A stretch of 64,000 nucleotides of DNA from Microbotryum violaceum (lineage: Eukaryota): assembly GCA_001244265.2 (NCBI GenBank), contig CDLV01000014.1, forward strand, positions 248,001 to 312,000, read 5' to 3'. The notes beneath the pieces are model-generated. The model was not told the origin of the DNA. It saw only the letters and a list, made by a program, of their open reading frames with translations, and did no database searches. The first letter of the stretch is position 1. Each line of letters begins with the position of its first letter. Both the position numbers and the translations under genes were made by a program. Shown here in pieces: positions 9,069-61,624 of this stretch.

Positions 9069-9548
9069 TTTTTTTTTGTAGAAACTGTTCATCATATTGC
9101 CCCCAATTCATGTTCCCCCTATTTGGCCTACGGAAAAAACTAGATGGAAGTCGACGATGATAACACAAACCGCCCGCAAGATGCGAGAAACGGGCCGGTG
9201 TCCACCAATCCGATACTTGGGATTCAAGTGCCCGAGCCAAGCGGTTGCTCCCCCCAGGAGACGAATGAGAGAGAGAAGATGAGAGAGAGAAGAAGAGAGA
9301 GAGAGAAAGAGAAAGAGTACAAAAATAATTGACTAACGACAAGAGACCCACCCCGCCGTCACTTCCCAACTCGGTCGAGACAAAGACAAGAGAGCGACTG
9401 CGCAGCTACCCTGACCCGCGAAGTCCCAAGTCTATGCTCGGTCACAACAAGACGCGGTGGAGGCCCCTCAAAACCTCCACCTCAGCAGTCCCTGGCCCCT
9501 CAAAGCCGACTTTCTGCCTGTGTCTGCTGATCCCTCCCTTGACTCAGA
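9069..9548 (-). mobile_element. 5'-truncated LINE copy (3'UTR plus poly(A)), diverged relative of the adjacent full-length element
   Basis: T9 tract at 9069-9077, then ~470 bp colinear with 9568-10019 with many substitutions; flanked by AGTCCT at 9064 and 9549. Confidence 0.9.
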
Positions 9549-10213
9549 AGTCCTCGTTTTTTTTTTTGTAGAAAACGTTCATCATATTGCCCCCAGTTCC
9601 TGTTCCCCCTGTTTTGGCCTACGGAAAAACTAGATGGAAGACTACGATGATAACACAAACCGCCCGCAAAAGTGCGAGAAACGAGCCAAGTCCACCAATC
9701 CGAGATTCGGATTCAAATGCCCTAGCCAAGCGGTTGCTCCCCCCCGGAGACTAATGAGAGAGAGAAAGAGAGATGAAGAGAAAAAGAAAGAAAAGAAATG
9801 TACTAACGACAGAAGGCCCACCCCACAGCCACTTCCCACTCGGTCGAGACGAAGACAAGAGCACGACTGCGCAACCACCACGACCCTCGACGCTCCAAGT
9901 CTCTGCTCAGTCACAACAAGACGCGGTGAAGGTCCCTCAAAACCTCCCCCATCGGCAGTCCCTGGCCCCTCAAAGCCGACTTTCTGCCTGTGTCCGCTGA
10001 TCCCTCCCTTGACTCAGAACCCCGAAGCCGAAGAGCGCGAGCCACACCGAGTCGACGCCAAATCGCGAGATGGTCCATGATCCGCAACGATGAACCTGTA
10101 ACAAATGAAAGATGAAAGCGATCTATTTAGTGTACAGTAGGAGAAAATGATGTCACGAGAATTTGGTGTGTGTGTGTGTGTAGTGGTGGTGGGGGCAAAG
10201 TCGAACCCAGCCT

Positions 10214-13200
10214 CTACTGCCCTCTCCTCCCCCAAGCTCCTCCCGCCCTCAGCTTCAACCTCTCCTCCAAGATGATCCTCCTCCTCCCAACACCCTCCAT
10301 CCTCGTCCCCCACTTTTGCATCCCCCACCTCCCGCTGCTGATCATCTCCAAGACCAGCCCGGTGAATATTTCGATCGTCCTCCCCGCTCCTTCTTGATCG
10401 CGTAGACTGGCCTTGAGCTTCGGAAGTCCGAACATGCGTTGAACAGCCGTGTAATGCGTGTTGTCGATCGTGTCGAGCCCCAGTGCGTCGCAGAGCACGC
10501 TCCTTGCCGCGATCCAAACGTTCCCAGAGTCAACGCAGTCGAAAAAGTAGTGGTCGGTGTCGTCCACCGGCGCTTCGCAGACGAGGCACGCGGGAGAAGT
10601 GTCGTGATTCTGTTGGTGTTGCAGCTTGCGCGTCGGGGTGAAGCGGAGAATCAGCTTGAACCAAACTTCCCTCTCCCTCGCCGTCAGTGCCTTCGAGTTG
10701 ACCGCCTTCCAAAAGCTCCTGAGGTCGTCCGGCTGCGGTGGTCCCTTGAGCCCGAGCGTGTTGGTAAAGGCCTTCGCGTTCAGGACCCGGCGGATGCGAC
10801 GGATGGTGTACGGTCGAGCCATGTTCAGCAGCTTGTACTGGCTCGCCTGCTGTGGAAGCACCGGGTCCGGAAGGCGCTGCTCCATTGCGAAGCGGGCCAC
10901 GGGCTTGGGGAGAATCGCCTCGAGTGGTGCGCTGGTGCCGATCCGGGGAGGCACGTTGAGCCGTCCTGCCGCCACCGCCACCGCCAAGGGCGTGTTCTTG
11001 TGTCGATCGACAGTGAACCGGTACCAGGCCGCGATTGCCAGTCGCTGCGGGAGCCCGCGTCGATCGTACTCGCTGTTGTCGCCGAGCACATCCGCCGGCG
11101 GCGTCCAAAAGTGAAACCCCCCACCCGCATACAACTCGCGCCGGTAAAGATCCGCCACCTTCGGGTAGCCCTGGAGACGAAGGTAGTCAGGTATATGAAC
11201 CGCGTCGATGGTCTGTCTCCCTCTGATGGGGTGTGGAGGCTGCCGAGCAAGGTGGGAAGCGCGAGCAGGTTCGCGGTGGTCAAGGTCCTCGGGTTGACCT
11301 GCGCGTCTTGCTGTTTCGGAACCCCCAAAGCTGCTCGCCATCGGGGATGGAGGTCGCTGGGGATGGGAGTGGATGGATGTGGCCAGAGATCGGTGGCCAG
11401 GTCGAGGTCGGACTGAGCTCGCTGGAGTGCCGCGCGCGCAAGTCCTTGCCAGATCGCGCCCGAACCGCCGAGAAGAACGTCCCAGATCCGTGCCGCAACC
11501 GCGTCCACGACGTCCTGCATCCTGATCACCCCGAGTCCCCCTTGAGCTTGGCTGTGAACACGATATCTCTGCCGTAGCTGGTCCTGCCCTTGCCCCCACG
11601 GACGAAATCGACGAGCATGTCATCGAGCTTCTTGACGACTTCGGGCGGCGGGATGTCGGCTGCAAGGAAGTGCAGGATCTTGGGGATGGCGTACCGATTG
11701 ACGTAAAAGGCACGGGTGTGGTGTGTGAGCCAGCGATGCTGAACCCCTTCCAGCGTCGCCTCGAGGCGTTCGATGAGATTCGCGTAGGCGAGTTCGGTGT
11801 CGCCGCTCGGGTCGAAGGGGAGGCCGATCCACTCGAGCGACTCGCCTGCGGCCTTGACGACGAGCGGGCGTTGCCCCGGGTCCCAGCGGCGTCCGATCGG
11901 TAGGACGACCGTCTTGTCCGTGTTGAGCCGGCCATTCGTTGCATGCCTCCAGTCGAGCGCCAGGTCATCGAGCAAGTTGAGTGACCCCAAGCTCGCGACG
12001 GCGACGACAACGTCATCGGCAAAAGCAAGCGATGTAATGGCGCGGCTCTGTGGGTACGGATGAAGTGCAGGTATGGAGAGATTCAGCGCGATGTTTCGAC
12101 GGTGTAGAGCATCCAGAAACGGCTGAAACACGATGTCCCAGACCGACGACGACGCCGGGTCCCCTTGGCCGAGCCCACACGTCAGTCGTACCGGCGCCGT
12201 CAAGAACCCATTGATGATGTAGCGGGCCGAGGTCGAGTCACCCGAGTAGAGCATCCTCAGCACGCGAAGAAAGGTGGCAGGAGCGCCCAGAGCGTCAAAG
12301 ATGGCAAAGATCCAGTCATGCTCGACGAGGTCGTAGGCGGACGATTGGTCAAGAGATAAGAGTGCGGCCGCGGGGAACTCGGTCCTGCGCGCGCCAACTT
12401 CCTCGATCAGGAGACGAAGGTGTAGTGCAGCGTCAGCCGATCGGCGGTCCTTGACGAATCCGTGCTGCTGCGGCGGGAGGAGATCGGGTAGAATCTGGTT
12501 CAAACGGGCGACATAGACCTTGGTAAAGATCTTGTAATCGCACTCGCGCAGGGTGATCGGCCGGTACGACGAAAGTTCGGCGCGATCGGCATTCTTCTTG
12601 TGTCGCTTGAAGATGAGGCGCACGAGTCCTTGGCCCTGCTTGGGAGAGAGTGAGCCTCGCTCTATCATCGTGTTGTAGGCCTTGGTCAGCACCTTGGCCC
12701 ACGCCTTGGGTGCGGTCTGGTAGAGTTCGTAGGGCACGCCCGACGGTCCCGGCGATCGCCCCGGGTGCGTCGTCCCGATCGCGGCCACGACCTCGTCCTC
12801 GGTGATTGGTCGCTGGAGTAAGTCGATCTGCGATTCCGAGAGTCGGCGCAGAAAGAGAGGATCCGAGCGCGGGTCGTCGCAAGTCCGCGCCGCCCTGATC
12901 GGCGCGAGGAATTCGTCCCGAAGTCGGCCGACGCGGTCCGGGTCACGAGGCTCGATGCGGTAGAGGCGCTGGAAATGCGCCTGCGTGTGGTCAAGAGCGA
13001 CATCAATGTCATGCGTTAGCTCTCCGTTGCTCAAGCGCAGTGCTGTGATCTTGGAGTCCGAGTTCCGCGCCGCGAGCTTGGCGTGGACCGGCCGCGACAG
13101 TCGTTCCTCGGAGGCGATCTCGGGTACGTGGGCTCGGATCCGGAGTAGGCGCGCGCGCTCCTCGACCGCCCGCTTGAGTTCCTCGGACGTCCTTGTCCAT

Positions 13201-14230
13201 TCTGCCGTTTCCGCCTCCCCCCATTCCGGTATCGCCTCCAGATCCTGCACCCTCCCCACCAAATACTCCATCCGTTCCGTCCGCTCCCGATGCAACCTCC
13301 TCGCCATCTCCCCACCCCTATCCCTGCACGCCTTCAGAATGACCTCGAGCTCCCCACCGGTTCCTCCCCGCTTGCCCCTTCCAACCATCCTTCCATCATC
13401 CGCTGGAATTCCACCGTCTTAAAGGTTGTGGTGTTGATTCGATGTAGTTGGTTTGATGTGGTAGGTAGGCTGAGCTGTGGGAGGGTCGCATCAGGATCGT
13501 CTGAGAGAGCCAGCACAATCAAGACCGGTCGGTGATCGGAAAGCTCCTTGGGATAGTCGTAGATCGTCGAGGCCTGATCGAGTCTTTTTTGGTGTGTCCG
13601 TTGCAGAAGAAAGTAGTCAAGCCGGGAGAAGGAGTTGGGTCGCTTGCGATTGGGATTAGGTCGAGTGAAGGATGGGGTGATGGGGTGTTTGTAGCGGATG
13701 CAGTCCGTGTAGGCCGAGTCGAGCTTGCCGATCAGGATTGGCCAGTGGTGGCCGCGCCGACTTTGGTTCCGCCGATCGACTTCTGGGCGCGGGCAGTCGT
13801 TGAGATCACCGCCAAGGAGTCGGAGGTGGGATTTCTGTGTTTTGTGAAATAAGAGTTTGTCAAAGAATTTCGCTCGTTGCTTTGGGTCAACGGGCGCGTA
13901 AACGTTGTTGATTTCTAGAATTTTGATGTCGCCCCGCAGTCGAAAGGACGTGACGAGGAGCCGGCCGTCGAGTGCCGAGTGGGTGCGCAAGAGCTCGGCG
14001 TCGATCAGGGGGGAGTCAGCCGGAATTAGAGTCAGGCAATGTTGGTTGATGAAGAGCTTGCCCTCGTACTCGTCCTTGATGAGTTGCCAGAGGTGCGGTC
14101 TGATGAAGTGCTCTTGTATGAGAATGGCCGATGCTTTGAAAAGGGATAGGTAGTCGTAAATGTCACGTCGTTTCTCCGGGACCCCCATGCCCCTCCTCAC
14201 GTTCCAGGTGATGATGGTGTGCTTAATCAT
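10214..14230 (-). CDS. LINE ORF2: APE endonuclease, reverse transcriptase and C-terminal CCHC finger (three apparent 1-nt frameshifts)
   Basis: APE motifs TWNV, LIQE, NVYAP, GGDLN, RLDYF, SDHRPV; RT motifs SPGPSG, YRPITL, QQHGF, GLGQGDP, FADD; CLVC-x8-HYFFDC. Frame changes near 13353, 11539 and 11220. Confidence 0.93.
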
Positions 14231-16479
14231 TAATGGGTAGTTGAGGTCGAAGCGCTCTTGGCGGTGGTGACGTCCTCAAAGAGGGGGAGGGCGGGCAGGA
14301 CATCGTCCTCGGGCTCGTGGTCGGACCATCTTTTCTCCTCGGCTACCCCCTTTGCTTTCCCTCGGTCCACTTTCGTCACGCCAACCGGCATCGCCGCCGC
14401 CGCTGACATCGACCTCGTCACCCTCCGCCCCTCTGTTCCATCCTTGACAACGACGCGGCTCTTCCCTTTGATGATCACTCGCTTGGCGTCGGTCGGTTCG
14501 TCACTCGGGTCACTGAGGTCCGCCGCAGTCTGCGACCTCTTCATTACCGGCTTTTTGAACTTCGAAGCGGTCCCCCTGATATTGATGGAACGTATCTCAC
14601 CGTCCTCATCCCACGTGGCAAAGTTGTGACGCACCAAAGGGGTTTCAGCGTCGAGCCTCCTCTCGATGCTTTGGTCCCGCTCGAGTCGTGCCTGCTCAAC
14701 CCAGTTAGCTCTGATCCTGTCCCACTCCTCCCCCTCGCGAAGCGACTTGGCAAGAGTTTCGGGTGACAAAGGTGGGGTTGGTTCGTGGGGTGTCGATTCG
14801 CGGGAAGCGGTGGCGGCGGTTGCGGTTGCGTCGCTGTCGTCGTCATTGTCCAGCCTGTTCGTCTCCCCTAAGTCCGTCGCTTCCGCGTTCTCCGCTTTCG
14901 TCGCTCCCCCTGCCTCGTCCACATCGTCCACCTCCGTCGCCACCTCCCTTTCCTCCATCTCCGTCGCCACCTTGCCTTCTGTTTCGCCCCTTCCATCCGC
15001 CATCACCTCATCCTCATCAATCACCTCTCCATCGGATCCTCCGCAGTCCACTAAAACCGACTCGTCCTCGCTCTTAAGTTTGATGACCTCCGTTTTCACG
15101 GTCGCCTCTGATTCCATCTCCGAGTCCTCCGAGTCCTCGTCATCCGCCTTATCACCAGCGTCCTCCTCCCCCGATTCCTCTGGCCCCTGTCCGCTCTGGC
15201 CAGTTACCGCTTCCTCCTGTCCCTCCTCAACCTCGAGCCCGGCGAAGCGATTCTGTGATGCGATCCTGTTAACAACCGGCACAGGAATGGGGGCCTCGGC
15301 CTCCGCAATGTTGGTGTCGTTGGTGATGGTGTTCTTGTTCGCGTTGGTGTTGCCGTTGCCGTTGCCGTTGTGAGCCTCCTTTCGCTTGCTCTCCTGATCC
15401 AGTCCGCAGGTTCCCACGTGACCAACGAAGTGGCACCTACCGCAAGCCGCCTCCTTCTCATAGTCATGGCGAAGGGCGGTGACGGGGATGCCTCGAGTGG
15501 GAAGGCCGATTCTCGAAGGTAGGATCTCTTTCAAGGTCGTGTTAGGGCGTTTGAACAGGGAGTCGTCATCGAAGTGTAGGAAAGCTGAGTAGTCTCCGGC
15601 AACGTGGGCAAAGGCCGAGGCGTTGTCCACGCTGATAATGCGCAGAACCTGCACAAGTTGGCACGAATGTCCCTTGCCTGACAAGTCCTGCACTAGTAAT
15701 TGGAACGATTTGATGATGGCATCCATGGAAGGCACTCCTTGAACACCGACGTTGATTCGAAGCTCGACCATGTTATGGTGGAACCTGTGAGATTTCGCGA
15801 AGCGGGCCTTCGCCGATCGCCAAGTGAGAGCAGGGGGCGTCGTAAGCGCAGCGTCACGTGCCTCGCCGGTGACGAACCCAACGGTAACGCGATGGTGAGC
15901 CGCCCCATTACGCAGGATTGATGAATGTTGTACGCCTAGGATCTGTGGTCGATAGGCTGCAAGGTGGTCCGGCAGAGGAACTCCAGGCTCAAAGCAGATA
16001 GGAGAGATCGGCGATAACAGCCTCGTGACGCAGGCCACGAGATCGGTCTTGTCGGCATGAGACGCTCGCGAGGCGCTCTGGTGAGACAGAGTCACTTCAA
16101 GGGCGTAATCAAAGATGTTCTCGACAGACCGGTTCGCGTTCAAGGCCGAGAATTTCAGCGATGTGGCGGTGGCGACGGGGTAGAGTTCGGCGAAGTAGAT
16201 GGCCTGGACCCAACGATCCATGCGGTTTCCGGGTACAGCACCCATGGCTTGTAGGAGGCTGCCCAGAGCCTTGGAACGCTGTTGTTGTTGTTGCTGTTGT
16301 TCAGGTGACTGAGTCGCCTGACTCGCAGCGGCGGCATAGTTGGGTGCGGCGGTGGCGGGGCCCGTGGCTTGCGTCTTCTTCGAGCTTATCGGGATCTGGT
16401 CGCGGGGTGGCTGGACGCTGGTGGCGGACACCGGTGGTGGCGGTGCCAGCGGTGGGGACCCAGGGTCTCCTGTAGACAT
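14230..16479 (-). CDS. LINE ORF1 (gag-like nucleic-acid-binding protein), 749 aa
   Basis: Uninterrupted ORF directly upstream of ORF2; zinc-knuckle-like [13 protein letters not shown], poly-Q tract, long acidic region. Confidence 0.88.
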
Positions 16480-16535
16480 CTTGTCGGTGTATCACTTGTT
16501 AACTCGAGTATCGAAGACTGCGGTAGGGCGATTTC

Positions 16536-16637
16536 GAAGTGAAGTGAAGTGAAGGGGGAAGTGAAGTGAAGTGAAGTGAAGTGAAGTGAAGTGAAGTGAA
16601 GTGAAGTGAAGTGAAGTGGAGTGAAGTGAAGTGAAGT
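16536..16637. repeat. (GAAGT)n / (TTCAC)n pentanucleotide array forming the 5' end of the LINE
   Basis: About 20 units with two interruptions, ending at the target duplication. Confidence 0.97.
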
Positions 16638-16676
16638 CCTTTTCCGGCAGCCCTTATAAGTGCTATGGGCAGAATG

Positions 16677-16833
16677 TGTTGAAGGTGTTAGTAGACCTTG
16701 CACTGATATGAGGGGCCGGATAGCTTAGTTGGTCAAAGCTTTTCCAATGAATGGAAGCGACCCAGGTTCGACTCCTGGTCCAGCCGTTCTTCTTCTTTTG
16801 TTGATCATTTCGGGATCATCGTTGATTCCAACA
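16677..16833 (+). repeat. Putative 157-bp LTR of Copia element 1
   Basis: Begins TGTTG where the host exon stops and ends CCAACA immediately before a PBS; no partner LTR in the window. Confidence 0.72.
16714..16786 (+). tRNA. tRNA-like element (pseudo-tRNA / Pol III type-2 promoter cassette) inside the LTR
   Basis: Cloverleaf: acceptor GGCCGGA/TCCAGCC (one mismatch), D arm GCTT-AGTTGGTCA-AAGC, stem TTTCC/GGAAG with non-canonical loop AATGAAT (no U33), T arm CCAGG-TTCGACT-CCTGG. A box TAGCTTAGTTGG, B box GGTTCGACTCC. Confidence 0.85.
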
Positions 16834-16845
16834 TGGTAGCGTCTG
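16834..16845 (+). promoter_or_regulatory. Primer-binding site (initiator tRNA-Met type)
   Basis: TGGTAGCGTCTG directly after the LTR-terminal CA; resembles the Ty1 PBS TGGTAGCGCC; identical 12-mer at 19503-19514 (-). Confidence 0.8.
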
Positions 16846-17010
16846 GCAGCGAGCAATGTTGGTCGACTTGGGGACCATCTCGGGAGACGTGATTCCCCTC
16901 AACGAGCTTCGAGAATGGGAGCAAGTCCTCAACGTCGTCATCAACCTCGAAGAATGCAACGGTTGGACCAACCTTTCGTCCATCGTTCAAGAGCCCACCG
17001 AGGGCATCTG

Positions 17011-18934
17011 CGGGATCGAGGAACTTGAAGGGTTTCTACGCTCAGATCGTTGAGATTCTTGGTGAGGAACGTGGCAAAGCTCTTTTGTCGATGGTCCTAC
17101 ACGTCGATGACTTCGCAATCAAAACTGTTCTCATGGAGCAGCTTCCCGAGAAGTACACGTTCGCATTCCGCGAAGAAAAGGACGTCGATTTATGCCTCGA
17201 GAAGGTCCGAACCGCCTACGATGAAGGCGTCATCATGAACGGTGCCAACCACAAGGAGCAAACGGAAGCACCTGCGAGCGCGTTCGCCGCGGCTCGCCAA
17301 GAGGCCGATCCGGGTCAGGCACCGCCTTGCAACGGCAATTGCGCTTGTGGACAGCAACCCCACGCATTCGCGACGACTGGTCAGTCCGGGGCTCACGCGG
17401 GTCCCACCAGGAATAGTTACCGCTCGGGAGGACATGGTCGCACCGGTACTCGCGTGGGAGCCAAAACCCGCGCGGAACACTACGCCAACTCCGACAAGTG
17501 GGGCAAGATCGTTGACGGAAAGTTCATGTGTGCAAACAATCAATGCGTGAACTGCTTCGGCTTCGGCCATCGCCGGGCGGCATGCGACTCAAGGAACCCG
17601 ACGGGTGACAGGATTGCGTTTCTCCAGTCGCTCGACATCAACGTTCCAGTAGCAAGTCATGAAAAATACTTCGTCGAGGATCCTGTTCCCATGAGTCTCG
17701 CGAATCGTATGGGTGCTTCCTTCCATTTCACGAACTATGCGGCGGAAGTGCGCGAGCAGACGATTTTTCGCGCGGCGACGGCTGAGGCTCCGGAGTTGAT
17801 TTTTGATACCGGCGCCACTACGTCGCTTGTCAACGACAAATGCATGTTGAGCGACTATGCGACGTTAGATTGCCCGATCTTCCATTTCGATGCGGACGCC
17901 CTGCTTGCACAACGAGGGTCCCGAGATAAGATTGACGACGAAGTTGGGAACGTGGAGGACGTCGGCGATGGTCATCTTGGAGGTCGTGCCGTCAGCGAGT
18001 GCGAACTCGGCAGTGAGAGTTCCTCGCCCTACCGCCGGAGTGCGCGTTCCCGCTGCATCGATCATGAAGATCGGGCAATCTAACGTCGCATAGTCGCTCA
18101 ACATGCATTTGTCGTTGACAAGCGACGTAGTGGCGCCGGTATCAAAAATCAACTCCGGAGCCTCAGCCGTCGCCGCGCGAAAAATCGTCTGCTCGCGCAC
18201 TTCCGCCGCATAGTTCGTGAAATGGAAGGAAGCACCCATACGATTCGCGAGACTCATGGGTACAGGATCCTCGACGAAGTATGTTTCATGACTTGCTACT
18301 GGAACGTTGATGTCGAGCGACTGGAGAAACGCAATCCTGTCACCCGTCGGGTTCCTTGAGTCGCATGCCGCCCGGCGAAAGCCGAAGCAGTTCACGCATT
18401 AATTGTTTGCACACATGAACTTTCCGTCAACGATCTTGCCCCACTTGTCGGAGTTGGCGTAGTGTTCGCGCGGGTTTTGGCTCCCACGCGAGTACCGGTG
18501 CGACCATGTCCTCCCGAGCGGTAACTATTCCTGGTGGGACCCGCGTGAGCCCCGGACTGACCAGTCGTCGCGAATGCGTGGGGTTGCTGTCCACAAGCGC
18601 AATTGCCGTTGCAAGGCGGTGCCTGACCCGGACCGGCCTCTTGGCGAGCCGCGGCGAACGCGCTCGCAGGTGCTTCCGTTTGCTCCTTGTGGTTGGCACC
18701 GTTCATGATGACGCCTTCATCGTAGGCGGTTCGGACCTTCTCGAGGCATAAATCGACGTCCTTTTCTTCGCGGAATGCGAAAGTGTACTTCTCGGGAAGC
18801 TGCTCCATGAGAACAGTTTTGATTGCGAAGTCATCGACGTGTAGGACCATCGACAAAAGAGCTTTGCCACGTTCCTCACCAAGAATCTCGACGATCTGAG
18901 CGTAGAAACCCTGCAGTTCCTCGGTGCCGATCCC
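17011..18934. repeat. Long inverted repeat: arms ~17011-17894 and ~18054-18934, spacer ~160 bp
   Basis: The same peptide (GFYAQIVEILGEE...DYATLDCPIF) is encoded on both strands; arms differ by a handful of substitutions and small indels. Confidence 0.95.
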
Positions 18935-19733
18935 AAGCTGTTGCTCCCAGAACGACATTTTCTGCCGGTTGCACAGTTCATCGAGTCGTTCCACCTCGGT
19001 CATGAACGATGTAACGCTCGTTCCTGGCTCGTAGCGAAGGTTCCAGTACGCTCGCAGGGTTTTGGTCCCACGAACGGGACGGAGTTGGTCTCGTAGGCTC
19101 GCACGAGCCCGGTCCAGACTTGATGCAAGCTGGCGTCGACGGCGGATCCCTTCAATTTGAACCACGTGTTCTCATCAACATGTGACCGAATCAAAGTCCT
19201 CCCTTTAGCGTCCTTCGCATCGTAGTCGTTGCATAAGGACGTGTAATCCTTGAGCGACTGATTGGGCGGCTGCGAGGCGGGCGGTTTCTTTTGCTCGCCG
19301 GTTGCGACGCGGAATGCGCTGATTGACTGCAGCGCAAGACGCATCGCAGGCGCCCATGCCGGCCAGTTGATGCGGGTGAGCAGACCAATGGATTCGAGGG
19401 ATTCAGCCTTTCTGGACACCGTTGGCTGTGCTTTTCCGGTTTGTTGATCAGTTGTGTTTTCGATGATCGTGCACCACAATTTAAGTTCACGGTTGAACTG
19501 ATCAGACGCTACCAAGTTAAATTTCGGTGCGAGGCGATCTTTGGTCCAGGGAGACGAGAACACGAACTTCAGTCAACGGTCGATAGCAGAGTCAATGATT
19601 GGTGAGGAACCAATCAAGAGGACTCCGCACCGCCGCTGACGCAGTCCGCGCCTCCCTGGCCAAAATGGCTTAAACTACCCAAAAACCCCAAAGACGCTTC
19701 TAGCCATTACTGCTCGCGCAGTCCCTTCCAACA
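17895..19733 (-). mobile_element. Ty1/Copia 5' fragment 2 (LTR, PBS, gag, protease; frameshifted; no IN or RT)
   Basis: Gag N-terminus LLTRINWPAWAPAMRLALQS; protease DTGAT...VGRGTL...VLHVPNFVVNLIS typical of Copia; PBS at 19503-19514; LTR starts TGTTGG at 19733. Confidence 0.88.
19515..19733 (-). repeat. Putative 219-bp LTR of Copia element 2
   Basis: TGTTGG start; ends TTTAACT (non-canonical) adjacent to the PBS; no visible internal similarity to LTR 1. Confidence 0.7.
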
Positions 19734-20347
19734 GACCTCGTGAAGAACCCATTCGTCACCGCCAACAAAGCACAGGGCGATTGCCAGCAGTTCTTCGTTG
19801 GCCCTGACGCGACGGTGACAGGGGTGGCGAGGGGGCCGTAAGGGATGTAATGGAGCAGCTCAGAAAGCACTCATATCTACTGCGCTCTCTCTCCTCTCTC
19901 TTGCCCTTCAGCCAGTCTCATCGTATGATTCTGTAGTCGGGACTCGTCGTATCCTATACTAGTAGCGTTTCGTATTTCATTGTTCTTTGCTGTTGCTGCC
20001 AGCCCCTCTGCGTTTCTACTCCTACCAATCGATGCCCGCTGAACACACAGCGCTTGGCTTCGTGTCCGTTCTACTCTCGAACCAACTCGAAGAAGTAAAG
20101 TAGTCCGCCCCCGCCGCTGAGCCTCCCTGGCCAGCTGAAAATAACGAAGCGTGCCACCAGCCCGGGAGGGCGTGCAGGCTCGATTTCCACAGGTGTTCAC
20201 GCTCTTCAAGCATAGGAAGACACTACCGGGTAAACTGATGGATTGAAATTCGAAGTCGCGGCTCGCACATCGCACTACGCCTAGTCTTTTCGTCTCGCAC
20301 ACCCAAGGAATACAACAAGAATTAACCCTCCCTACTCTACTCTATAC

Positions 20348-23300
20348 TCAGGTCATAATGGAAGGCCTTTTCTTCCCCTGCAATGCGATCTCACATCTCT
20401 CACAGACGTGTCCGACCTCTTTCTCCTTAGGAACCGAGTGACTCCTGCATCGAGGACATTTGTAGTTCGTTGAAGGGGTGACGATGAGCTTCATGCCTGA
20501 TGGGAGAGTCTTGTCGAATGATCGACTTATTCCTTCGAGCGAAGTTCGTGACTCGTTCGCCCGGGAGAGTACAACGTCGGACACGACGAAGAGTGCAGAG
20601 AGGGAGTCATCTGCGCAGGAGCCCAGCATCAGTGATGGCGCACCATGATCTCCTTCGACGACAGCCCGCGAATGCTCACAATGCTTTTGCACGAGTGAAG
20701 ACGCATTCTCAATCTCAACGAGTGCCTCCGTCGAGCTTCCGATCAATCTGCAGTAAAGAGGAGATGTGACTTGTTAAGCATGATGTCATCGCGGACATGC
20801 TCATTCTTTCGCCGACTGACCTCTCAGCCCGGGCTTGTTCGAGCAATCCCATGACTTGTTCCCGAACGATCAATAACTCGTCCATCTCATTTTTGGCCTC
20901 CGAGGACATCCATCGTTCATTCTGGAGTGTAGAAATGGAGTCTTTCGCTCAGTCATGCCTCGTCATCTTCATCAACTATCCTCTTCGATGCGACAACTGA
21001 CCGGCTCTTTCCAAAGCTTCTCAAACACGCTTGAGGCGGATTCCCCCTCCCCAGCAACCGGATCTCTCGTCGCCCCTGTTGAGAAATGGTGAATCTCCTC
21101 CGCCAATAATGGAGCAATTGGAGCCAACACCATCGTATACGAGTCCAAGACGCGGTTCAAGATGTAGACGATGTGCTGACGTCGAGTCGAATCGATGGGA
21201 TCGGAGTAGAGGGGGTCTTTTATGATGTCGAAGTAGAAGGAGGAGAGGGTCGTGTTGGAGAAGGAAGTGAGGGATTGATAGACTGGGGAGGAAGGAGACA
21301 AGAATCAGCAGTGAAGGCGTAAGTCAAGGCGTTGTAGGGTGAAGCACGACTCACCTCGACTAAAGTTAAAGGTCTCGTACGCCTCTCGAGTTGTCTTTTC
21401 CAAAACGTATAGTTCATGTAGGATGTACCGATCGATCTAATTTCGACCCAGTACATCCGATCAGCTGCTTCATTCCTTCCCTCTCATCCCGTGAGTACTC
21501 ACCAATCCCAATTGCTCGACCTCAATGTCGACCTCTGTATTCTGGGACCCTTTCGTGGCCGCCAAATTGCCCAAGATGAATCTCGCCGTGTTCCGAATTT
21601 TGCGGAAGGTCTCGAACGTTTGCGCGAGGATCGAAGGCCCGATCAAGACGTCCTTGGTCGAGTCGACCGAAGCGACCCACATCCGCAAGAGATCGACACC
21701 ATACGCCGGTTGAGTTTTGGGGTTCTACAAGTATGTGTCGACGATGATTTAGTCCCGCCAGTTCAAGGGTGGGAGCGAGAGGATGTACAGAGCTCACCTT
21801 TCCACCTTGTATGATCGTCGCGGGACTCAGCACGTTGCCCAAGCTCTTACTCATTTTCCTCCCCTTCTCATCCAACACCATCCCATGCGTCAACACATTC
21901 ACATAGGGTGCCTTTCCACTCCCATCTGCCGCCACAGCAGTCAACAAAGAGCTCTGAAACCAACCGCGATGTTGATCTGATCCTTCGAGGTATAGATCGG
22001 CCCAAGGTTTGCCTTCCTCTCCTTTGGAGGACCTGACTCCAAGTTCACGTAGGAGCGTCCAAGAAGTCCCGGAATCGAACCAGACGTCCATGGTGTCGAA
22101 CCCTTTGCGCCAGGCCCGACCTTCCTTCTTCGAACGTTCCAGTTCTTTGGGTTCGACGAACTCTTCGGCTTCCCCTATCCACCAATAATCTGTTCCTTGA
22201 AGGTGGGAGTCGAGGACGCTTATGATGTGGTCGACATTGGAAGGGGTGAGAAGGGGTATAGATGAGGCGATGGGGTCGGTCGCATCACCAGGGTAAGAAT
22301 AGACGATGGGCAGAGGGACGCCCCATGCTCGTTGGCGCGAGATGCACCACTCGGATCGACCTCGGACGTAGGTCTCGAGCGTTTTGTGACCTGGGGTCGA
22401 ATCACACTCCTTGGTCAGTACAGGTGTTTGCATGCAAGGGAGATTCAGCCTACCTCGGGGAGGATGGAACGAGACGTTTTCCAACGCTTTGACGGCGTCA
22501 TCCTTGACCTTTTCAAGATTCGCAAACCACTGACCCGAAGCCCTGTAACGGAGGTTCGGTAGGAACGGTTCAGCACGAGAAACATGTAGTGCATGCCCCT
22601 CAGATCTCAAAGGACCGACCTGAAGATAACAGGCTTCTTGGTCCTCCAATCGTAAGGAAACTTGTGCACCGTCTCCACCTCCTTCAACAACACCCCAACC
22701 TCCTCCAGAACCTCAATCATCGCGCCCGTACCGTCTCCCAGAACACTCTTGCCCTCCAACCTCTTAGAGATCGCCTCATCAACGGCCATCTCCTTGAGGA
22801 CAGATCCAATCAATTTCCCATCCGCATCAACCGCACAAAGGATCGGCGAAGGCGTTTGCGAGGATTGAGAGGACTGATAAGCGCGGTAAGCGTCGTAGTC
22901 ATCTACGCCGTGAGCTGGGGCCGTGTGGACGAGTCCGGTACCGGTGATGGAGGTGACGTAGGAAGCGGGGAAGATGGGACGAGGTGGGGAGGGAGAGTTG
23001 GAGGAGGCCAGAGGATTGAGGTAGGTCGTTCTGAGGAGTGATGAGCCTGGAAAAGATGTGAACGCACCGTTTCTCATGAGTCATGGCGTCGAGCGGTTGT
23101 AAATGTACCCCCTGCACTCACCTGAAAACTGCGCCACACTCTTTAGTTTAGTCCCAAAGATTTCCGACAACGCTTCTATCCGATCCGTTGCGACGACGAG
23201 CAACCTGCCCGGTCCCAAGCCTTCGACGAGGGAATAGTCCATCGTCTCGGAAATAGCCACGGCCTGGACAGCGATACGTCAAATCAACGGTTCGCAAAGA

Positions 23301-50657: not shown

Positions 50658-51287
50658 TCAAAAATCGAGCGCGATTAATTCCGATCCTCTCCTCGCCTTC
50701 TCTTCGAGACAGCAAGCCAAAATCTTACGGTCTTGTTGATAAAGGTACAGCAAGGATATAGGGTGATCGCCAAAAGGCGTGGGCGGAAACCCGTAGGAGA
50801 AGATAGTGAGAGTCAAGGAAGAAGGGATGGATAACGGCAGCTCAAAGGAGCAGTGTAGGTTGCAGTATCGAACAGGGTAAGGGGAGCGGTTGGAAGTCTC
50901 GACTCTCCTGACCACTCGCGCGAGTCGTAGCGGAATAGTGGTTCAAGTTGCAGCAAGACGAAGGACAACATTGGTGGTGTAGGAGTTGTTAAACAAATAC
51001 CTCAAGCGGTGAAAACCCAGCCTTCTGGGGAAAATCGCAAGAGATTGATCTAAACGGAAGAGAGTCCGAACTTCTTGGTGATAAACAAGGATGGTGGGCG
51101 GGAACTTTCGATCAGCGACCTCGTCAGCTGGGAGGTAGTCTTGGGAGTGGGGAACGCACCTGTCCCTATAGGTGGTGAACGCAGCCGCAGAAGCTGGTAA
51201 GGAAACGTCGACAACGCAGTGAAGGCCCAAAAGGGAACGTGCGTTTCGAGTACCGCCCGTGAGCCCGCGTGTGTGGGAAGCACAGCT
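50658..51287 (-). pseudogene. Fragment of an unknown gene, internally deleted; duplicated at 60586-61441
   Basis: 50898-51287 is near-identical to 60586-61441 except that it lacks ~60791-61155 and one tandem unit; in-frame stop at 50943. Confidence 0.6.
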
Positions 51288-60585: not shown

Positions 60586-61624
60586 CTCGACTCTCCTGAC
60601 CACTCGCGCGAGTCGTAGCGGAATAGTGGTTCGAGTTGCAGCAAGACGAAGGACAACATTGGTGGTGTAGGAGTTGTTAAACAAATACCTCAAGCGGTGA
60701 AAACCCAGCCTTCTGGGGAAAATCGCAAGAGATTGATCTAAACGGAAGAGAGTCCGAACTTCTTGGTGATAAACAAGGATGGTAGGCGGGATGAGAATTG
60801 GGAGCTTTGCGACCCAAGCTTTTGGATGTCAGTCGGCTGCAACTGATGATGGAGCAAGTCCACTGGTCGTCTCAGCATACCTTTGCGACAAAGGCAAGAC
60901 ACTCTATAAAGACAGTTGGGGCGCGGTTGGTGCAAAGGACGGCAAAGGGTCTGCTGAGAGATATGCGATTTAGCTCGTTGCTCAACAAGGACCCGGAGCA
61001 AAATGCCCCCACAAAGAATTTGCAGGGATCCAAGTGCAAAGTACACCGTGCAACAAGCTTGGGTGTATCGAAGCACTTACCCCGAGCTACTCTAAGCGAG
61101 CCACGTCGAGGGTTTCATAACGAGCTGCTAGCAGTTGTGAACGTCCGGCAAGATGGAACTCTCGATCAGCGACCTCGTCAGCTGGGAGGTAGTCTTGGGA
61201 GTGAGGAACGCACCTGTCCCTACAGGTGGTGAACGCAGCCGCAGAAGCTGGTAAGGAAACATCGACAACGCAGTGAAGGCCCAAAAGGGAACGTGCGTTT
61301 CGAGTACCGCCCGTGAGCTCGCGTGTGGGAAGTACAGCTATAGCATCCACTGGGGGAAACGTCGACAACGCAGTGAAGGCCCAAAAGGGAACGTGCGTTG
61401 CGAGTACCGCCCGTGAGCCCGCGTGTGTGGGAAGCACAGCTATAGCATCCACGGGGGAGAGAGGGTCCGTGCGCGCGAGCCTGAATCGGCGCGTCAAATC
61501 CTTGCAGCAAAAGCCGAAAAGACCAGTAGGTCAAGTCGGAGGCGATAGCCCAGTTAATGTGGTCCAGCGCCCGATAAGGGTCGTCTCTTTGTAGACTAGC
61601 TGGAATTAAAATTCTCATTCTCAT
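60586..61624 (-). pseudogene. Intron-containing gene remnant with ~97-bp tandem duplication; partner of 50898-51287
   Basis: gtaagt and gtatgc donors with in-phase exons PFAVLCTNRAPTVFIECLAFVAK|LPILIPPTILVYHQEVR; in-frame stop; tandem units 61255-61350 and 61355-61452. Confidence 0.55.

Follow-up and report, generated by a model that had tools for sequence, protein, structure and literature searches.

A 64,000-nucleotide stretch of Microbotryum DNA, hereafter the window, carries a 157-bp long terminal repeat (LTR-A) that is built around a tRNA-like module and followed directly by a primer-binding site (PBS). We think it likely that LTR-A and its PBS represent the truncated 5′ LTR of a non-autonomous element of the Helenus type, which the resident Copia family would mobilise in trans. 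Helenus elements are TRIMs (TRIMp3) with tRNA-like sequences in their LTRs (Kojima 2024, PMC10886601; here and below, statements from this paper refer to the part of it available to us). The kind has thus been in print since 2024, and its probable occurrence in Microbotryum is what is new. The copy in the window is dead: behind the PBS it is fused, at the letters GCAG, to a fragment from the middle of a Copia pol gene, which is followed by a palindromic gag–protease fragment. The identity of LTR-A as an LTR is the firmest part of this reading, the miniature, non-coding structure of the element is less firm, and the use of Pol III is the least firm.

A dispersed terminal repeat with a tRNA-like module

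The unit and its parts, together with the PBS, are as follows.
16677–16833, plus strand: LTR-A, long terminal repeat of 157 bp with TGTTG...CAACA ends, a dispersed multi-copy unit
16714–16786, plus strand: tRNA-like module, a 73-nt cloverleaf with a 4-nt variable loop, C-A at pair 4/69 and A at position 33 (ARAGORN, Rfam)
16721–16732, plus strand: box A-like segment TAGCTTAGTTGG in the D-arm region, with TAGCT...TGG fitting the TRGCY and YGG motifs quoted for Helenus
16765–16775, plus strand: box B-like segment GGTTCGACTCC in the T-arm region, in which GGTTC (16765–16769) is the conserved Helenus box B core
16787–16799, plus strand: (TTC)3 and then TTTT, a putative weak Pol III terminator
16834–16845, plus strand: PBS TGGTAGCGTCTG, 12 nt, directly behind LTR-A

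LTR-A opens with TGTTGAAG, the reverse complement of its end is TGTTGGAA, and its TG...CA termini carry a 5-bp inverted repeat. To follow the unit beyond the window, we placed the contigs of four public runs, and contigs only, on positions 14000–22000. In run X1, 22 contigs cover position 16710; 5 contigs depart from the window sequence immediately before 16677 and 15 immediately after 16833, and the continuations beyond the two ends are dissimilar (agreement 0.53 and 0.41). Run X15 gives the same picture, with 12 contigs over 16710, three contigs that diverge before 16676 and three after 16833. The preliminary description had proposed a 157-bp LTR bounded by TGTTG and CAACA here, and the copies in the contigs end exactly at both of its boundaries. 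The summed contig depth at 16710 in X1 is 1965, compared with 11.9–12.8 for single contigs on the unique flank (the gene to the right); summed contig depth is not copy number, and we put the latter only roughly, at the order of 100. The copies are not all alike: a 1-nt deletion at 16729, in the D loop, occurs in four X1, one X15 and two X19 contigs, and also in the M. silenes-dioicae gene model P0013. Within the window, a repeat search (blastn, word size 9) returned no second copy of LTR-A, and no polypurine tract belonging to it is present; the window copy is without its 3′ end. Exact-pattern scans for LTR-A gave no matches in metagenome contigs (two patterns) or in viral contigs.

The tRNA-like part was recovered by two programs. 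ARAGORN reports one tRNA gene in the 64-kb window, at 16714–16786 on the plus strand with anticodon tga, and the sole Rfam match is to tRNA (RF00005), with 48.9 bits (gathering score 29; E = 1.4e-08 for 4.5 kb and 2e-07 for the whole window). The cloverleaf takes up 46% of LTR-A, in agreement with the earlier estimate of nearly half. A promoter derived from 5S rRNA was not found, as Rfam gives tRNA only, both for 16000–20500 at E up to 1 and for the whole window at the gathering score. The A and B boxes reported previously are present and fit the motifs quoted for Helenus, and (TTC)3 with four T does follow the cloverleaf. The stems, by contrast, had been called intact, and the Rfam alignment shows one C-A mismatch in the acceptor stem (16717/16782, pair 4/69).

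The anticodon loop reads AATGAAT (16746–16752), as first described, with A at position 33. A canonical anticodon loop has U33, and serine tRNAs have a long variable arm; the module combines a serine anticodon with the absence of such an arm. Its A33, its C-A pair 4/69 and an anticodon that varies among copies all depart from a functional tRNA gene, and the module would not be a good decoder, as had been supposed. Folding energies are unexceptional: the tRNA-like part has a z value of −1.44, with 18 of 200 shuffled sequences folding equally well, the cloverleaf differs from the minimum-energy fold, and LTR-A plus PBS gives z = −0.12. Thermodynamic folding thus neither supports nor refutes the tRNA-like reading.

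A host tRNA gene or pseudogene that merely lies beside inserted retroelements is an explanation to which we give hardly any credence. Insertion beside Pol III genes is familiar from Ty1 and Ty3, the module is the only tRNA-like sequence in the window, and LINE and Copia debris surrounds it. However, the 22 X1 contigs repeat the tRNA-like part jointly with its two flanks, with a 37-nt leader common to the copies, and LTR-A also occurs in unrelated gene models of two other species. The dispersed copies with exact ends at 16677 and 16833 therefore exclude a single-copy host tRNA gene, the outcome that the preliminary description had named as speaking against an LTR. The A33, the acceptor mismatch and the serine anticodon without its long arm point the same way.

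The leader also bears on a second explanation, in which LTR-A would be a SINE of tRNA origin that owes its mobility to the neighbouring LINE family, with the TG...CA ends and the PBS present by coincidence. A tRNA-like head with A and B boxes, a T run and a high copy number would suit a SINE, and a full-length LINE lies directly to the left (10214–16491, minus strand), at an X1 depth about 20 times that of the unique flank. However, the 37 repeat-conserved bases upstream of the tRNA-like start lie within LTR-A, behind a sharp 5′ end at TG; because the Pol III transcript of a SINE would be unable to include these bases, they argue against this explanation. Moreover, the 3′ end is a sharp CA with no tail, no part of 16640–17025 is similar to the adjacent LINE or to anything else in the window, and the PBS adjoins LTR-A both here and in the gene model P0015. 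The genome-wide census of transposable elements in M. lychnidis-dioicae counts 0 SINE copies (Perlin et al. 2015, in the part available to us). We accordingly hold a SINE to be very unlikely. A related proposal in the preliminary description placed a SINE inside a pre-existing LTR. The duplicated TGTTGA on which it drew does occur at 16677 and again at 16799, but a SINE inserted with this target duplication would leave an ancestral LTR of only 35 bp, and we reject it for that reason.

The surroundings on this side of LTR-A are rich in repeats. The LINE looks full-length, with a 753-aa ORF1 without a Pfam match and with matches to Exo_endo_phos (41.5 bits), RVT_1 (78.5 bits) and, weakly, zf-RVT (26.1 bits; cut-off 27.5); its X1 contigs reach depths of 137–261, where unique sequence has about 12. 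Between the LINE 5′ end and LTR-A lies a (GTGAA)n microsatellite with some 20 units (16530–16645), and in each of the four runs the contigs end at 16529. On the other side, directly past the LINE 3′ end, 9069–10019 is a tandem duplication with a unit of about 470–490 bp (83–91% identical). Farther off, direct repeats of about 380 bp lie at 50898–51287 and 60586–61441 (86–99% identical, separated by 9.7–10.1 kb), and a further copy of 87 bp is at 61355. These repeats may be LTRs that bound a large element; the intervening sequence has three long ORFs, none of which matches Pfam. The GC content of the window is 56.0%; that reported for M. lychnidis-dioicae is 55.4% (Perlin et al. 2015, in the part available to us). 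Together with the protein matches, which carry Microbotryum names at 85–97% identity, this makes an anther-smut host almost certain.

The primer-binding site and the Copia sequences behind it

The sequences that follow the PBS belong to Copia and end in a second, different LTR.
16846–17010, plus strand: Copia pol fragment (integrase–RT linker) fused to the PBS, matching P0001; not gag
17011–17893, plus strand: left arm of an inverted duplication of a Copia gag–protease fragment, with homology from 17011 (P0001 residues 322–615, 93%)
18055–19502, minus strand: frameshifted 5′ portion of a Copia element, from gag as far as the protease beta-barrel, the inner portion forming the right arm of the palindrome
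19503–19514, minus strand: PBS of the minus-strand Copia, a 12-mer identical to the PBS behind LTR-A and adjoining LTR-B
19515–19733, minus strand: LTR-B, Copia LTR of 219 bp without a tRNA-like part, with a repeat boundary at 19733

A PBS directly behind the LTR had been described before, and the 12-mer at 16834–16845 proves to be identical to that of the resident Copia. TGGTAGCGTCTG occurs exactly once more in the window, at 19503–19514 on the minus strand; 0.31 matches are expected by chance, and at least two are found in 7 of 100 shuffles. The window holds no host initiator tRNA gene.

The minus-strand Copia is recognizable by Pol_BBD (E = 2.5e-11) and by a match of 93–96% to residues 109–674 of P0001, a 1814-aa Copia polyprotein of M. 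silenes-dioicae with the domains rve (760–859), SH3_retrovirus (923–990) and RVT_2 (1323–1551). The repeat boundary of its LTR-B at 19733 is seen in two X1 contigs, two X15 contigs and one X16 contig, and P0001 includes a translation of LTR-B and the PBS in M. silenes-dioicae. The window and P0001 therefore agree that the coding Copia with this PBS uses LTR-B and not LTR-A. LTR-B has no Rfam match at E up to 1. A derivation of LTR-A from LTR-B was considered and rejected: their similarity is limited to the terminal TGTTG(G)AAGG, and the local alignment score of 10 compares with a shuffle mean of 10.3, with 197 of 300 shuffles scoring as well. The label Copia LTR, which had been given to 16677–16833, is thus apt in that the unit behaves as an LTR with a tRNA-like module, but its ownership by a coding Copia is unsupported.

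The reading frame behind the PBS also differs from its first description. The ATG taken for the start of gag is present at 16856–16858, but it opens a pol fragment. The 65-aa translation of this ORF matches 12 proteins among 211 candidates, 11 of them from M. silenes-dioicae and one from M. intermedium, and it aligns with residues 1218–1277 of P0001 (85% over 60 aa); the longer stretch 16835–17035 aligns with residues 1211–1277 (81%). In other copies of the pol piece, found as loose ends in three X15 contigs and one X19 contig, pol coding sequence and not a PBS precedes 16846, as it does in P0001, where these codons specify RGGAEQ. We therefore place a breakpoint at 16845/16846, with GCAG common to both sides. 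The purine-rich letters before 16846 in those copies are the same pol codons (RGGAEQ in P0001), and a third LTR from 16857 onward, behind a polypurine tract, was discarded as a candidate on that ground.

The pol piece gives way at 17011 to gag, beginning with P0001 residue 322, and the transition falls at a short similar motif: 17011–17030 encodes GxEELxGF, which P0001 contains twice (residues 322–329 and 1270–1277). Both junctions lie at short shared letters and could reflect template switching during reverse transcription. The M. silenes-dioicae protein P0009 reproduces the pol-to-gag junction (97% and 94%), and on the strength of this protein the scrambled locus probably has a counterpart in that species. 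The arms of the palindrome, 17026–17893 and 18055–18915, are each about 870 bp long, 97–99% complementary and separated by a spacer of 161 bp. An X1 contig over the spacer and the right arm has a depth of 25.3, twice the unique value of about 12.6, and the palindrome is therefore not an artefact of this assembly alone. The whole block 16677–19733 was also considered as a single inserted unit, with TGTTG facing outwards on both sides; we reject this, as its 5-bp flanks differ (GAATG and GACCT).

Copia coding sequence in sense orientation behind the PBS would also fit an internally deleted autonomous element. LTR-A might then belong to a Copia subfamily that is autonomous or was so until recently, and the window copy would have lost what lay between the PBS and the middle of pol. 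The pol fragment is more diverged from P0001 (81–85%) than the gag arms are (93%) and could come from another subfamily, and TRIMs that arise by internal deletion of autonomous elements are known (Figure 1 legend, PMC10886601). Nevertheless, the order pol, gag, inverted gag is collinear with no Copia, the ORF at 16856 moving from residues 1218–1277 straight to gag from residue 322, and the window holds no 3′ LTR-A. Elsewhere the pol piece continues upstream as pol rather than as PBS and LTR-A, and the Copia that has this PBS carries LTR-B, in the window as in P0001. Furthermore, 15 X1 contigs leave LTR-A for unrelated flanks, compared with 3–6 contigs with the listed pol-piece variants, and a Pol III transcript of 5–6 kb is unlikely by Kojima's argument (PMC10886601). 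We consider an autonomous owner of LTR-A improbable, and we are equally doubtful that a coding Copia subfamily carries a tRNA-type Pol III module in its LTR, be it as insulator, processing signal or promoter. Such a coding Copia would contradict the published argument that confines LTRs of this kind to miniature elements.

Copies in gene models and a proposed mode of mobilisation

Minus-strand translations of LTR-A match gene models of M. silenes-dioicae and M. saponariae, while its plus-frame translation gave no matches among 1.84 billion representatives (HMMER). P0013 (M. silenes-dioicae; one protein among one candidate) is a polysaccharide deacetylase whose annotated C terminus is LTR-A, and P0014 (M. 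silenes-dioicae) and P0015 (M. saponariae) are two proteins among 25 candidates. P0013 and P0014 share the same CA terminus and have a flank there that is not a PBS, as would be expected of solo or 3′ LTRs. P0013 further differs by a change of G35 to T in the anticodon, besides its 1-nt D-loop deletion. The translated box B stretch is identical in all three of the translated copies.

P0015 contains two stretches of LTR-A in one orientation, the first cut after the T arm and the second preceded by a translated PBS, and ends at the same CA terminus as LTR-A. At its break, the homologous window sequence offers GT and AG, so that the remainder of one LTR, together with the internal part, may be concealed in an intron of the gene model. 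Such an arrangement would be expected of a complete element, two LTRs and PBS included; it is read from a predicted protein and not from DNA. The junction of LTR-A and PBS is thus seen, in translation, in P0015 and possibly in P0007, which ends in the translated LTR-A terminus and in letters that fit either the PBS or pol; this copy is ambiguous. The gene models P0001, P0007, P0013, P0014 and P0015, which translate LTR and PBS sequence, are likely annotation artefacts of this repeat.

For a Helenus-type element, we propose the following working. The A and B boxes would recruit TFIIIC and Pol III, with transcription starting just upstream of 16714, and the T4 run may be weak enough for read-through in the 5′ LTR. 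The tRNA-like stretch would then be present at each RNA end as the R region, and the 3′ end of the initiator tRNA would prime reverse transcription at the PBS. The resident Copia family, with an identical PBS and matching outer LTR letters, would supply reverse transcriptase and integrase in trans, and the Copia proteins would recognise the shared termini. Recombination between LTRs would leave mostly solo LTRs. The idea of a Pol III-type LTR that the preliminary description put forward is a reasonable one.

Run X19, whose contigs also cover LTR-A, looks like RNA, because its contigs skip six intron-like stretches in a tRNA-synthetase gene. This coverage fits transcription from an own promoter and read-through alike, and we do not count it as evidence. 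The gene in question encodes a class I aminoacyl-tRNA synthetase (20226–22712, minus strand; tRNA-synt_1, E = 1.3e-41), and the six stretches that an X19 contig skips, between 20.6 and 21.8 kb, are 66–80 bases long with CT..AC ends.

In a milder variant of the idea that a coding Copia subfamily owns LTR-A, the junctions between LTR-A plus PBS and Copia pol in the window and in P0007, both at short shared letters, could be footprints of plus-strand strong-stop DNA that jumped to a co-packaged Copia template. Such footprints, if they are real, would be direct evidence of the identity of the mobiliser.

Implications and comparison with known systems

Fungal Helenus elements have been reported from Pucciniales and a few Agaricomycetes, and are stated to be absent from Microbotryum, Leucosporidium and Rhodotorula (PMC10886601). 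The present assignment would extend them to the anther-smut fungi, a lineage in which the describing paper found none; with LTR-A in Microbotryum, they would therefore be more widely distributed in Pucciniomycotina, or have arisen more times, than the reports indicate. Within the literature available to us, searches for Helenus elements since 2024 and for TRIM, solo-LTR or tRNA-like elements in Microbotryum returned no report of such elements in this genus. The 2015 account of M. lychnidis-dioicae lists 134 tRNAs and 1942 copies of 'Unknown' repeats besides its 0 SINE copies (Perlin et al. 2015, in the part available to us). LTR-A may explain part of this large 'Unknown' class, and roughly 100 such units per genome can inflate counts of tRNAs and pseudo-tRNAs. 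The units also run into gene models, as in P0007, P0013, P0014 and P0015. Use of Pol III by such LTRs is shown only for Cassandra, and Microbotryum could serve to test it. Microbotryum has a small genome and can be cultured.

The closest known system is Helenus. Its elements carry, between their LTRs, a PBS as well as a polypurine tract and measure 311–1263 bp as a whole, LTR lengths of 120–323 bp are mentioned, and many copies are solo LTRs; in fungi they make 5-bp target-site duplications and use PBS types common to Copia, including the initiator tRNA 3′ end, but differ from the Copia partner in their LTRs (PMC10886601). LTR-A agrees with this description in its tRNA-derived sequence with boxes A (TRGCY, YGG) and B (GGTTC), which is unlikely to decode, in being a true LTR by its TG...CA ends and its dispersed copies with shared ends, and in its length of 157 bp, within the reported range. 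It agrees as well in its directly adjoining PBS, which is common to a resident Copia with an unrelated LTR, and its predicted pseudo-tRNA type, Ser-TGA, is also found in Helenus families of Puccinia (Table 2, PMC10886601). It differs in its host, Microbotryum belonging to the Microbotryomycetes, from which none is reported, and in that the window copy is fused to Copia coding fragments. A full structure with paired LTRs, a polypurine tract and a 5-bp duplication are not seen in the window, which contains a single LTR-A, and the comparison draws on the described features of Helenus.

Cassandra, the only TRIMp3 lineage with demonstrated transcripts (PMC10886601), is likewise a non-autonomous LTR element with a Pol III promoter in each LTR, the promoter being a predicted one in LTR-A. 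Its module is derived from 5S rRNA and its hosts are plants, whereas the module of LTR-A is tRNA only by Rfam. The preliminary description knew of no tRNA-derived counterpart of Cassandra in fungal Copia elements; Helenus, which includes fungal members, has made that view outdated (Kojima 2024, PMC10886601).

The origin proposed for Helenus is the insertion of a tRNA-derived SINE (SINE2) into the LTR of a TRIM (PMC10886601), and SINE2 elements resemble LTR-A in their tRNA-like head with A and B boxes, their shortness and their high copy number. By contrast, SINEs start at the tRNA-like 5′ end, lack TG...CA ends and a PBS and depend on LINEs, whereas the LTR-A unit includes 37 leader bases, a CA end and a PBS.

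Finally, the resident Copia of the P0001 type (18055–19733, minus strand) shares with LTR-A the identical 12-nt PBS and the outermost TGTTG(G)AAGG. It differs in its LTR, which is 219 bp long here and without a tRNA-like part, and in encoding gag, protease, integrase and RT.
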